IMG/VR virus record: IMGVR_UViG_2919425241_000002
Coordinates: 1-64,000 of that record
Source of the DNA: a virus
Lineage: Duplodnaviria > Caudoviricetes
DNA length: 64,000 bases
Reading direction: 5' to 3' (one strand)
Both the position numbers and the translations under genes were made by a program. This document shows, piece after piece, positions 1-3,384 of the stretch (positions are counted from its first letter, which is position 1; each line of letters opens with the position of its first letter). The notes below the pieces were generated by a model that saw only the letters and a list, made by a program, of their open reading frames with translations, was not told the origin of the DNA and made no database searches.

Positions 1-492
1 ATGCTGTTTTTGACACATAAGGTTTTTGTTAGTTATCATCATGCCAATGACCAGACTAAAGCTGATTACTTGCGTTCGTATTACGGATCTAATAACACGC
101 TAATTGATCGATCATTGCCTTCTGAGCTTGACAGTGACGATAACGAGTACATCTTAGGACAAATTCGGACGAGGCATCTAAAAGACTCAACTGTCACAAT
201 AGTACTCATTGGTAGCGAAACACACGCAAGAAAATGGGTAGACTGGGAGATTTACTCATCACTTCGTTCTCATGGAGCACGCTCACGAAATGGCCTGTTA
301 GGTATATATTTGCCTACTGCTGGTGCAACACCGGCTCGGCTACAAGATAATATTGATTCAGGATATGCCATTACAATGACTTGGAGCAACATCTCCTTTC
401 AACTGGAGTCCAAAATTGAACAAGCATTTAATAACAGAGAAAAAGTTGAACTTGTTGAAAATTGGCGCCTTAGGAGGATAAGGAATAGCTGA
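1..492 (+). CDS. ThsB-like TIR-domain protein (MTH538/DUF1863 type); true start may be TTG at 10
   Basis: KVFVSYHH, STVTIVLIG, RKWVDWEI (catalytic Glu) and NGLLGIYLP motifs typical of Thoeris ThsB-type TIRs. Confidence 0.85.
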   Translation: MLFLTHKVFVSYHHANDQTKADYLRSYYGSNNTLIDRSLPSELDSDDNEYILGQIRTRHLKDSTVTIVLIGSETHARKWVDWEIYSSLRSHGARSRNGLLGIYLPTAGATPARLQDNIDSGYAITMTWSNISFQLESKIEQAFNNREKVELVENWRLRRIRNS

Positions 493-1175
493 TGGCACGA
501 AGACCTTATTTAAAGAAAAGGAGACATTCCCTCAAAGTGTTAATTTCAGCTGTAATATTTCTGGCGTTAAGTGTCACTTTCTTTTGCGTTCATTGGACTT
601 GGACTTATAACCCAGGGAAATTCGTTATTAACGGACCATTTAATCTTGGGACTTATGAATTTGATCGAGCCACATTATCTGGCAAAGAACAAGATATAGC
701 TTGGAAATTATATGTACAACTAACAACGAGGAAAGCGGCAATGCCTTACGATGAGGAGAATGATATCATTGCTGAAGTATATGATTCCTGGTACCAGCTA
801 TTCTCTTCAACAAGAGATTACTTAATCGAGATGCCGGCCAAAGATTTAGAAGGAAACGAGAATGCACAAGCAATTGTTAAACTCTCAGTAGATGTATTAA
901 ATGACGGTTTACGTCCTCATTTAACTAAATGGCAAGGGAAATATCGGAAGTGGTATGATTCAGCGTTGCAAAAGGAAGTAAACAAAGACCTGTCGCCTCA
1001 AGAGATTCAGAGACAATACCCTCAGTATGAAGAAATAATTTCTGATATCCGCGAAGTAAATGCTGAGCTTAAAAAATACGCTTTTGAACTAAAAAGATTT
1101 TCACATGAAGAGCCACCTAGTTTTTCTACAAGAGCCGTCGGATGGGTTAAGGATATTTGGAGTAAGTCTCGATGA
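492..1175 (+). CDS. Membrane-anchored protein of unknown function; candidate TIR-signal effector
   Basis: Basic N-terminus, one hydrophobic helix (aa ~16-34), then a helical soluble domain; TGATG coupling to the TIR gene. Confidence 0.7.
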   Translation: MARRPYLKKRRHSLKVLISAVIFLALSVTFFCVHWTWTYNPGKFVINGPFNLGTYEFDRATLSGKEQDIAWKLYVQLTTRKAAMPYDEENDIIAEVYDSWYQLFSSTRDYLIEMPAKDLEGNENAQAIVKLSVDVLNDGLRPHLTKWQGKYRKWYDSALQKEVNKDLSPQEIQRQYPQYEEIISDIREVNAELKKYAFELKRFSHEEPPSFSTRAVGWVKDIWSKSR

Positions 1176-1233
1176 AGGTAGATTGAGGCACCTTATCATA
1201 AGGGGTGCCCTTTGTTATTCCATTTAAAGGAGT

Positions 1234-2115
1234 TTGTTCATGTCAATAAGTACTTTAACGAACACAATCAATAGAATTCAACGCGACATTGCTGACTTAA
1301 ATAAAAAAATAAGTGATGAAAAGAAAAAAGAAGCTTCAAATACCGGGAGAATCAATCAAATCCAAAAAAGCATTTCAAAGTCGACCCCAGTTACCTCCGT
1401 AAACAGTAAGCTTATGCAAATTGAAAGAATTCAAAGAGAAAATGCTGGAATATCTAGCAAACAGGCCGACTTACAAAAACAATTAGCTAATAAGGTTTAT
1501 GAATTAAACAAACAACAAATAAATCTAAGTAAAGAACAAGAACGTGAGCAAAGGAAACTCGCTGATCTTGAAAAAAAGCGTGAACGTGAACGATTGGAGT
1601 ACCAGCAGCGCATTACACGTGAGCTTAAGGAACAAAAGGAACTTGTACTAAGCTTAACAAATGCAGGTTCTCATTCTAAACATACTGGTTTAGCATCAAC
1701 TGAGGAGAATGAGTTATTTGACGTCTTCATTTCTCACGCTAGCGAGGATAAAGATGACTTCGTTCGCCCTCTCGCTGAGGAATTAGTAAGGATCGGGGTA
1801 AAAGTTTGGTATGATGAGTTCTCGTTAAAATGGGGAGACAGCCTGAGGGTTTCTATAGACAAGGGGCTTTCTAATTCAAAATTTGGAGTTATCGTGATTT
1901 CTTCATCCTTTATAGGTAAGAAATGGCCTGAGTATGAGGTTAATGGATTGGTAGCCAGGGAGATGGCTGGGGGTAAAGTGATCTTGCCAATATGGCACAA
2001 GGTTTCTAAATCTGAAGTAATAAAATACAGCCCCACATTAGCTGATAAACTCGCTATGAATTCATCTGTTGATGAAATAGCAGATATAGCCAAACAATTG
2101 AAATCTCTTTTGTGA
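1234..2115 (+). CDS. Coiled-coil + C-terminal TIR_2 protein (TcpB/TirS-like, probable NADase)
   Basis: ~140 aa Q/K/E heptad-rich region, then FDVFISHASEDK, VWYDEF, WPEYE, ILPIWH. Confidence 0.9.
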   Translation: MFMSISTLTNTINRIQRDIADLNKKISDEKKKEASNTGRINQIQKSISKSTPVTSVNSKLMQIERIQRENAGISSKQADLQKQLANKVYELNKQQINLSKEQEREQRKLADLEKKRERERLEYQQRITRELKEQKELVLSLTNAGSHSKHTGLASTEENELFDVFISHASEDKDDFVRPLAEELVRIGVKVWYDEFSLKWGDSLRVSIDKGLSNSKFGVIVISSSFIGKKWPEYEVNGLVAREMAGGKVILPIWHKVSKSEVIKYSPTLADKLAMNSSVDEIADIAKQLKSLL

Positions 2116-2173: not shown

Positions 2174-2914
2174 TTATTCTTCCGGCTGTCCTGATACTTT
2201 CCGCAGCTCATTTGCTAATCGATGTACTTCATCCTTGCTAGCCTGATCTACGCAAAGGCCATATACTGCGCTTAAAACGCCGATCACCTTATTCGCATCT
2301 TCTTTATTCAACATCAGTTCTTCCTCCTCAACTCGTAATGCATTCCATGAACCTAGCCCTTCATAGCCCTCATTCAGATCCACACCGATTCCGTTTTCCG
2401 TTATGTCGTTCTTGTACTGGTAAATATGAATTTTGTTAGCTTTCTTCCCGCGGCTCCAGGCGTAGGTCTGCCAGAACCTCGAACAGACGCGTTCAGCCAT
2501 AGCCGCATTGATTACGGTATATGAGCCGTATACGCCTGTGTTGTATCTCGGAGTAGCTTCACTAAAGCCTTTAATGTATTCAAGCACTATAGGCATCTGA
2601 GCTGCCGTGACGTCGAAGTCCACAGCCGTGTAGATCGTGGAGCCCTCAGGCTGACCGACTTGTTTGGCCACTTCGACAGCAGTGTACCCGTCATTAAGTC
2701 CGGCAGTCCTGCCGCCAAGGGCTCGATTGGCTGTTGTCTCGAATACAGAAATGATATCGATGCCAGCTTGATTGATCAGTCTAGACTCAGCTTTCGTCAT
2801 AGCCTTTTTGTAATTTGCGGGTACTAGGTACCGACCAACGAATGCATAGCCGGCTGCCGCAAAAGCAGCAGCCGTTTTAGCCGTTAATGGAGTGGAGCAA
2901 TCAAATCCCTTCAT
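2174..2914 (-). CDS. Endolysin, DUF1906/GH25-like glycoside hydrolase
   Basis: MKGFDC, FVGRYL, IYTAVDFD, GVYGSY, WQTYAWS; lies directly after the holin. Confidence 0.85.
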   Translation of the reverse strand: MKGFDCSTPLTAKTAAAFAAAGYAFVGRYLVPANYKKAMTKAESRLINQAGIDIISVFETTANRALGGRTAGLNDGYTAVEVAKQVGQPEGSTIYTAVDFDVTAAQMPIVLEYIKGFSEATPRYNTGVYGSYTVINAAMAERVCSRFWQTYAWSRGKKANKIHIYQYKNDITENGIGVDLNEGYEGLGSWNALRVEEEELMLNKEDANKVIGVLSAVYGLCVDQASKDEVHRLANELRKVSGQPEE

Positions 2915-3384
2915 TGCTGCACATCCTTATCCTGTGATGTTCCATCGCCTTTGGCTTTAAGTACCTGAATTATCTCTTTTAATTTTGGTGGCATAGGATA
3001 ACCCATTCTTCCATAATTCTCTGTGATCGAGATAAGCTCATTAGCGAGATAAAAATAAATGGCACCAGTCATTAAGACGTCGGTGCCAAGTAAGATATCC
3101 ATCCGATGAGCCAACATCACAACAACGAGCATGAATGCTTTCTTAGCCAAACCCCAGAACCCAACACTACTGTTGAGTCCTTTACCTTCCTTCAAGGAAG
3201 CTACCAATCCTGTCACGTAGTCAACTCCGATTGCCAATAAAAAGAAACTCAACAATTCGCTCCACCCCCCGAATGCATAAGATACTGCGGCACCAGTGAT
3301 GCCTGCTGCGGTCATGATGGATGCTTGTTGCTGAGTTGTTGTAAGGCCTAATGTGTCGGCAGCTATTTTCTTGAACATGAACAT
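2911..3384 (-). CDS. Phage holin (holin_4 / TcdE-like family)
   Basis: DYVTG, LNSSVGFWGLAKK, YLANELISITEN; three hydrophobic segments. Confidence 0.9.
   Translation of the reverse strand: MFMFKKIAADTLGLTTTQQQASIMTAAGITGAAVSYAFGGWSELLSFFLLAIGVDYVTGLVASLKEGKGLNSSVGFWGLAKKAFMLVVVMLAHRMDILLGTDVLMTGAIYFYLANELISITENYGRMGYPMPPKLKEIIQVLKAKGDGTSQDKDVQQ

Follow-up and report, generated by a model that had tools for sequence, protein, structure and literature searches.

Organization of the three-gene cassette

The first 2,115 nucleotides of the IMG/VR virus record IMGVR_UViG_2919425241_000002 (Caudoviricetes), of which positions 1 to 64,000 were analyzed and are referred to here as the window, carry three genes that a preliminary description had put forward as a Thoeris-like defence cassette with an unrecognised effector. 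Direct observation covered how the genes are built, which domains they encode, their genomic linkage and the homology to a validated system; together these indicate with a probability of about 0.78 that genes 1 and 2 constitute a self-contained type VI Thoeris module on a Paenibacillus-like prophage, and that gene 3 belongs to the AbTir/PDC-S66 family and forms a TIR module of its own. The features of the region were as follows:

1-492, plus strand: gene 1, thsB; open reading frame (ORF) of 163 amino acids (aa); ThsB-type TIR, predicted phage sensor and signal synthase
492-1175, plus strand: gene 2, thsG in its membrane-anchored form; ORF of 227 aa; predicted signal-activated membrane effector
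1187-1209, plus strand: terminator-like hairpin, an 8-bp stem followed by CTTTGTTATT; from a consensus scan and the sequence, a consensus match only
1240-2115, plus strand: gene 3, coiled-coil TIR of the AbTir/PDC-S66 family; 291 aa from the ATG at 1240
2129-2153, no strand: inverted repeat of 9 bp, GAAGAGGAC / GTCCTCTTC, with a 7-nt loop; read from the sequence, possible two-way terminator
2174-2914, minus strand: endolysin, Rv2525c_GlyHyd-like (PF08924, 4.5e-29)
2911-3384, minus strand: holin, Phage_holin_4_1 (PF05105, 1.3e-37)

Genes 1 and 2 overlap in the sequence TGATG at 490-494, where the stop codon of the former and the start codon of the latter have one A in common, and a Shine-Dalgarno sequence (AGGAGG/AAGGA) sits inside the end of gene 1, just 5' of the gene 2 start. 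Gene 2 is followed by a terminator-like hairpin, and this in turn by a Shine-Dalgarno sequence belonging to gene 3 itself; the earliest possible start of this gene is the TTG at 1234 (293 aa), although the ATG at 1240, with AAGGAG six bases before it, is the likelier one. The inverted repeat at 2129-2153 lies between gene 3 and the endolysin gene that converges on it, and was missed by the terminator scan because its T-run is short.

The G+C content was 0.35-0.41 over the cassette, against 0.43-0.51 over the phage genes of the next 10 kb. The three genes are convergent with the endolysin and holin genes, which directly adjoin them downstream on the minus strand and identify the cassette as cargo located at the end of the prophage. 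The provirus record begins at position 1 of the window, and the question of which genes lie upstream of gene 1 was approached through the loci of relatives. A sigma-70-like site at 10-39 (TTGACA, 18 nt, TATCAT; 11 of 12 matches), located within the first codons of gene 1, may be a chance match and was not used as evidence, because such sites were rarer in the region than in shuffled sequences.

The structural claims of the preliminary description were confirmed. The ORFs, G+C values and Pfam matches agreed with an AT-rich, single-strand layout of three genes opposite to the lysis genes, and the TGATG coupling of genes 1 and 2 was found where it had been placed. Gene 2 encodes one hydrophobic helix, in line with the single TM described, with one strongly hydrophobic segment at residues 16-34, and gene 3 encodes about 140 helical residues followed by a TIR domain (TIR_2, 1.8e-18).

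Genes 1 and 2 as a type VI Thoeris pair

Gene 1 matched the ThsB_TIR family (PF08937, 1.6e-21) over profile positions 1-98 of 100, and is therefore essentially full length; its PADLOC matches were to ThsB models (3e-13) and to PDC-M50B (3e-15). The predicted catalytic glutamate, E83 in WVDWEI, aligned with the glutamate of WVRYEI in the Bacillus cereus ThsB (PDB 6LHY/9B7D), and also with TEI of the ThsB from Escherichia coli ACN001. The Pfam match and this alignment together bear out the ThsB-type TIR with an intact WVDWE motif that had been recognised at first sight.

Gene 2 had no match in the copies of Pfam, PADLOC v2.0.0, PHROGs v4 and NCBIfam r20 that were used. A tblastn search of the phage collection found nothing, and the plasmid collection yielded distant hypothetical proteins only. 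The absence of SIR2, SLOG, Macro and caspase domains, noted earlier, held in the Pfam and PADLOC searches, and no PADLOC ThsA model was matched; gene 2 thus has neither the SIR2 and SLOG domains of the type I effector ThsA nor, in Pfam, the Macro domain of the type II effector ThsC, which joins a transmembrane (TM) segment to a Macro domain.

An AlphaFold2 model of the gene 2 monomer, built on a 30-sequence alignment, had a mean predicted local distance difference test score of 91. It consisted of a helix at residues 5-38, holding the hydrophobic segment, a beta-hairpin at 43-58, and a helical bundle; the fold is all-helical after the hairpin, unlike the alpha/beta fold of Macro domains. Foldseek found no match to this model in the PDB at E <= 0.001, and a wide VIA-align search returned generic helical bundles only (top Z 9.1), including the alpha-pore-forming toxins MakB, YaxB, PaxB and ClyA (Z 7.4-7.9) and Csx28 (Z 6.2). 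These structure searches were uninformative, because all the Z scores were below the level that is meaningful for helical bundles. The profile of the gene 2 family gave nothing real when compared with PDB sequences.

The identity of the pair came from a recent preprint that defines Thoeris types V-XI (Yirmiya et al., December 2025; bioRxiv 10.64898/2025.12.03.692087). In that work, type VI consists of a TIR protein and ThsG (DUF6650), the latter "in some cases" with N-terminal transmembrane helices. The type VI TIRs produce 2' cyclic ADP-ribose (2'cADPR) upon infection, and cells carrying type VI systems, a "DUF6650 and TM" system included, were arrested by 2'cADPR and not by 3'cADPR or cADPR; ThsG was modelled as a hexamer with basic pockets. 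Three "DUF6650 and TM" systems that defend are given in its Table S2, including the one from E. coli ACN001.

A profile built from 131 representatives of the gene 2 family detected a single gene in the ACN001 chromosome (E 1.8e-15). This gene, annotated as hypothetical, encodes 243 aa and is immediately adjacent to a TIR gene; both lie within the variable part of a P2-like prophage. The translation of the TIR gene is identical to the sequence that Table S1 of the preprint gives as the "E. coli ACN001 type VI" TIR, and because of this exact match the 243-aa neighbour was taken to be the tested effector. Gene 2 aligned with the ACN001 ThsG in BLASTP (E 1e-10, 25% identity over 186 residues), and an hhalign comparison of the family profile with the same protein gave 97.9% (E 4.9e-13). 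Gene 1 and the ACN001 ThsB were 39% identical (E 2e-20). Given the homology of both its proteins to the ACN001 system, the gene 1-2 pair is therefore assigned to type VI Thoeris, in its membrane form.

The resemblance extends to the organization of the loci. In the membrane form of type VI (ACN001; Gammaproteobacteria scaffold), as in the window, two overlapping genes encode a ThsB-type TIR and an effector of about 230-245 aa, the latter having N-terminal hydrophobic helices and a helical domain, like gene 2. The ACN001 pair is prophage-borne, as is that of the window, and its TIR has the FxSYHH start and the (W/T)EI catalytic motif in common with gene 1. The gene order in ACN001 is the reverse of that in the window, where thsB comes first, both orders being found in the family; the ACN001 ThsG has about two helices in its first ~65 residues, whereas that of the window has one, after a polybasic tail. 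The host also differs, since the window belongs to a Bacillota (Paenibacillus-like) phage, and the tested system to E. coli.

The effector of the preliminary description was thus part right and part overtaken: gene 2 does differ from the SIR2-SLOG, TM-Macro and caspase classes of effectors, but it is not an unrecognised one, given that the ThsG family, as "DUF6650 and TM", was published and tested in December 2025. A match of gene 2 to an already described effector was the finding that the description itself had named as speaking against its proposal, and such a match was obtained. Genes 1 and 2, as well as gene 3, are further examples of known systems and not a new system.

From this homology we infer the identity of the signal, the oligomerisation of the effector, its attack on the membrane and the defence itself. 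By analogy with the tested type VI systems, ThsB (gene 1) would sense phage infection and turn NAD+ into 2'cADPR. ThsG would then bind the signal through its helical domain, the probable sites being basic pockets formed where the protomers of a ring-shaped oligomer meet; the conserved R80, K81, R108, R141 and H143 are candidate residues of these pockets. Finally, the N-terminal hydrophobic helices of ThsG would breach or depolarise the membrane, so that growth stops before the phage cycle is completed.

Distribution of the gene 2 family and linkage to TIR genes

A word-indexed search recovered 584 relatives of gene 2, while an exhaustive profile search gave 1,103 clusters at 50% identity, and a scan of the genome collection with patterns of the family found 269 relatives in species genomes, distributed over bacteria of many phyla. 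Three arginines (R80, R108 and R141) were invariant in the 131 family representatives, and T79, K81, D91, Y97, S99, F104, N137, H143-T145, W154, P169 and Q173 were nearly so.

Linkage was counted over the 79 loci in which a gene 2 homologue could be called. A ThsB-type TIR gene lay within 150 nt on the same strand in 58 of them (38 upstream, 17 downstream and 3 overlapping), and a TIR was present somewhere in the fetched locus in 72/79, that is, further away in another 14; in the remaining seven of the 79, no TIR was detectable by single-sequence search. All four IMG/VR loci of the family had thsB directly upstream. The co-occurrence of gene 2 homologues with DUF1863-type TIRs, which had been proposed as a check, was therefore confirmed. 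In the four closest loci with abutting genes (L002, L003, L004 and L006), the ORFs scanned immediately upstream of the pair yielded neither SIR2 nor SLOG proteins; they included a fusion of AAA and TIR, an additional small TIR, and ORFs lacking annotation.

The surroundings of the pair varied among these loci. In the closest relative, from a Paenibacillus sp. (L002:3531-8627), it lies downstream of smpB and a gene for an AAA-TIR fusion of 523 aa. In L004 and L006, thsB is directly preceded by another, small TIR gene (~190 aa, with a CxFISH motif), whose product resembles the other TIR cluster that was linked to DUF6650 in the preprint (bioRxiv 10.64898/2025.12.03.692087). Lysinibacillus parviboronicapiens (L007:4226-8612) has in a row the genes for a 160-aa ThsB, a 682-aa TIR-SLOG protein, a 275-aa TIR_2 protein and a membrane ThsG. 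The 682-aa protein belongs to LD_cluster2, like the "TIR and SLOG" effector of type IX, and two Thoeris-type effectors may share TIR sensors at this locus.

Larger operons were also observed. Nmad2 was present in 22 of the 79 loci, in which further genes surround those for the TIR and the membrane ThsG: the 5-hmdU-kinase (5-hydroxymethyldeoxyuridine kinase) helical domain in 15 loci, MazG in 10 and a thymidylate-synthase-like gene in nine, with kinase genes occurring variably (examples are L012:2140-6150, L031:5025-8483, L019, L059, L073, L024 and L036). The core of these operons matches DS-4 ("NTTI"), a system reported with DefensePredictor (PMC13092281) that comprises thymidylate synthase, a deoxynucleoside monophosphate kinase, 5-hmdU kinase, a TIR and Nmad2, and that was validated in E. 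coli with no mechanism given. In our loci a ThsG-type membrane effector is attached to this core, an arrangement that points to TIR signalling as the way in which DS-4 acts. The DS-4 accessory genes are all absent from the window, which represents a minimal two-gene form.

Gene 3, a coiled-coil TIR of the AbTir/PDC-S66 family

Gene 3 matched the PADLOC single-gene candidate PDC-S66 over its full length (5.4e-110, 3-293) and phrog_15646 (2e-99), and its TIR domain matched that of AbTir from Acinetobacter baumannii (PDB 7UWG/8G83; E 3e-54). Residues W229, Y232 and E233 were invariant in the alignment of homologues, W229 being the alpha-C tryptophan and E233 the catalytic glutamate. In the 269 aa of AbTir (PDB 7UWG, 7UXU, 8G83), residues 27-118 form a coiled coil and residues 134-267 the TIR, the same architecture as in gene 3 (coiled coil of ~140 aa, TIR at 157-290); AbTir is among the 2'cADPR-producing TIRs of Manik et al. 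Gene 3 differs from it in being prophage-borne and in lying beside a ThsG gene. A functional analogue only is SpbK, encoded by ICEBs1 of Bacillus subtilis, a single-gene TIR abortive-infection protein that clusters on a phage protein for activation (PMC12847820); it likewise has an N-terminal helical domain, a small one, before a C-terminal TIR NADase, is carried on a mobile element and acts alone, but its N-domain is a four-helix bundle instead of a long coiled coil, and its products are ADP-ribose and canonical cADPR. In gene 3, which would be transcribed separately, the coiled coil is predicted to mediate oligomerisation, and the TIR to act as an NADase and 2'cADPR synthase.

The neighbourhoods of gene 3 homologues pointed to a gene that stands alone. 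In all 80 metagenome loci surveyed (80/80), no ThsG, DUF6650 or ThsB was found within 3 kb, and no partner recurred, the largest non-self cluster being a restriction-modification-like gene in 13 loci; a conserved partner gene for gene 3 was rejected on these 80 loci. Likewise, no ThsG or ThsB neighbour is annotated in a Klebsiella phage, Geobacillus phage phiOH2 or Enterococcus phage EFC-1; in the last, the homologue is convergent with the lysis genes, as in the window. No gene 3 homologue was found beside close relatives of genes 1 and 2, except for a weak and distant one in L007; both the four closest loci with abutting pairs and the four IMG/VR loci were devoid of it. The exception to this partnerless state was a Bacillota genome (G576, L085:621-1911, minus strand), where a gene for a canonical, soluble DUF6650 protein (PF20355, 3.4e-36) is directly upstream of a gene 3 homologue (4.8e-63) encoding a coiled-coil TIR of 308 aa. 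Restriction-modification-like genes adjoin this pair, which may be a type VI Thoeris system with an AbTir-type TIR as its ThsB.

These results bear on whether the three genes of the window make up one system, in which gene 3 would be a second sensor whose 2'cADPR also activates ThsG, widening the range of phages detected. The strong AbTir match, with the catalytic glutamate and the alpha-C tryptophan kept, the production by AbTir of the very signal of type VI, the L085 arrangement and the extra TIR_2-type genes in the ThsG loci L007, L041 and L005 are all in its favor, and the preprint indicates that DefenseFinder type VI calls may hold two ThsB genes (bioRxiv 10.64898/2025.12.03.692087). Set against this are the terminator-like hairpin and separate ribosome-binding site between genes 2 and 3, and the lack of ThsG, DUF6650 or ThsB neighbours in the 80 metagenome loci and the three phage genomes, together with that of gene 3 homologues in the closest loci with abutting pairs and in the IMG/VR loci. 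Furthermore, defence genes at prophage ends are often adjacent to one another with no functional coupling. A single three-gene system is therefore possible but doubtful, and the cassette as first described was weakened by the Shine-Dalgarno sequence of gene 3, its position after the hairpin and the overwhelmingly stand-alone nature of its family. Gene 3 most likely acts on its own, as a separate single-gene module next to the type VI pair.

Relation to DUF6650 and membrane topology

Several observations weigh against the assignment of genes 1 and 2 to type VI. Searches with the DUF6650 profile (PF20355) in HMMER missed gene 2, all the 131 family representatives and the validated ACN001 ThsG as well. 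The hhalign comparisons of the gene 2 family alignments with two DUF6650 alignments and with a single Bacillota DUF6650 sequence were not significant, and the sole bridge between the sequences was a weak BLASTP match (E 0.002) of the ACN001 ThsG to a Bacillota DUF6650. The identity of gene 2 to the tested ThsG is just 25%, so that its signal could differ. The single Bacillota "DUF6650 and TM" system that was tested conferred no defence in B. subtilis (bioRxiv 10.64898/2025.12.03.692087). Lastly, the pattern of charges around the hydrophobic helix in the clade of gene 2, taken at face value, predicts that the sensor domain is outside the cell.

As to the profile, PF20355 likewise gave no match in the record of the window, in four genomes carrying the gene 2 family or in ACN001 (at E <= 1 in the latter), and a sweep of Bacillaceae genomes found none. 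Since the validated ACN001 ThsG also escapes it, this criterion cannot separate members of the membrane form from non-members; membership was based here on homology to the tested ThsG, because the DUF6650 label is weak by sequence. Weak links to DUF6650 were nevertheless obtained from other sources: a language-model (Atlas) feature score of 0.77 to a DUF6650 cluster, the similar lengths and spacing of the first domain helices in the AlphaFold2 models of gene 2 and a canonical DUF6650 protein, and an HHpred entry of DefensePredictor (PMC13092281) that places DUF6650 at residues 69-164 of a 242-aa E. coli protein, for which a weak membrane-protein-family match at residues 41-65 is also reported. 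The soluble form of type VI (ThsB with a DUF6650/PF20355 ThsG) is the same system type according to the authors of the preprint, and lacks a membrane helix; its ThsG has the L-x-[ST]-[KR]-[RK] motif at the domain start in common with the gene 2 family, but the relation of its sequence to gene 2 is not significant in HMMER or hhalign.

An alternative is that genes 1 and 2 are Thoeris-type but respond to another signal, in which case the membrane ThsG family would either be related to DUF6650 as a sister or not be related at all, and would deserve a type of its own. The profile-profile results and the low identity to the tested ThsG are what this explanation would predict. Effectors of one type may also not respond as expected, as reported for the type V system of Bacillus sp. 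1NLA3E and for type IX (bioRxiv 10.64898/2025.12.03.692087), and in the operons with Nmad2, 5-hmdU-kinase-like, thymidylate-synthase-like and MazG genes (22/79 loci) a modified nucleotide might serve as ligand. However, the authors of the preprint class the TM-bearing effectors as ThsG, and their "DUF6650 and TM" system was specific for 2'cADPR; the HHpred entry and the agreement of the two models at the domain start also point to DUF6650, and we regard this explanation as unlikely.

The topology of gene 2 was examined through the charges flanking its helix. In its Bacillales clade, seven or eight Lys/Arg precede the hydrophobic helix within a stretch of 11-15 residues, and one or two follow it (window 492-600, residues 1-37; homologues with the polybasic tail are P0002, P0011, P0015, P0018, P0024, P0031 and P0040). 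The reverse was seen in 107 of the 131 family representatives, which have more Lys/Arg after the helix than before, and therefore a sensor domain predicted to be cytoplasmic, as needed by the receptor of a cytoplasmic signal. In the clade of the window, either the helix is uninserted until activation or the polybasic tail has another role. That gene 2 instead faces outwards (N-in, C-out) with a role such as superinfection exclusion, leaving the TIR to act alone as an NADase, agrees with the charges in its own clade, but is very improbable in view of the cytoplasmic placement by charge of the homologous domains, that of the tested effector included, the tight operonic coupling to a cytoplasmic TIR across many phyla, and the lack of a signal-peptidase site or any secretion feature beyond the helix.

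Implications for type VI Thoeris and AbTir-like proteins

Under the assignment of genes 1 and 2 to type VI, the new class of membrane effector had been correctly foreseen by the preliminary description, yet it was already described and tested in the December 2025 preprint. Because the family is invisible to the library copies used, annotation with those libraries will keep calling such loci an orphan ThsB next to a hypothetical protein. The residual interest of the window is modest, and lies in the possible cross-talk of gene 3 to ThsG and in a charge pattern that clashes with the expected topology.

The window, from a Bacillota prophage, pairs a TIR of a 2'cADPR-producing family with an effector of the 2'cADPR type, and thus offers a convenient natural setting in which to examine whether TIR modules cross-talk. 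The AbTir-type gene 3 could conceivably supply its product to a neighbouring ThsG that responds to 2'cADPR, and so serve as an additional sensor with its own transcription, an idea that we put forward only tentatively. If it were true, AbTir-like proteins, whose native role is unsettled, would gain a physiological function, that of sensing for type VI Thoeris in the manner of ThsB, and the DUF6650 and coiled-coil-TIR pair of the Bacillota genome would be the minimal form of such a system.

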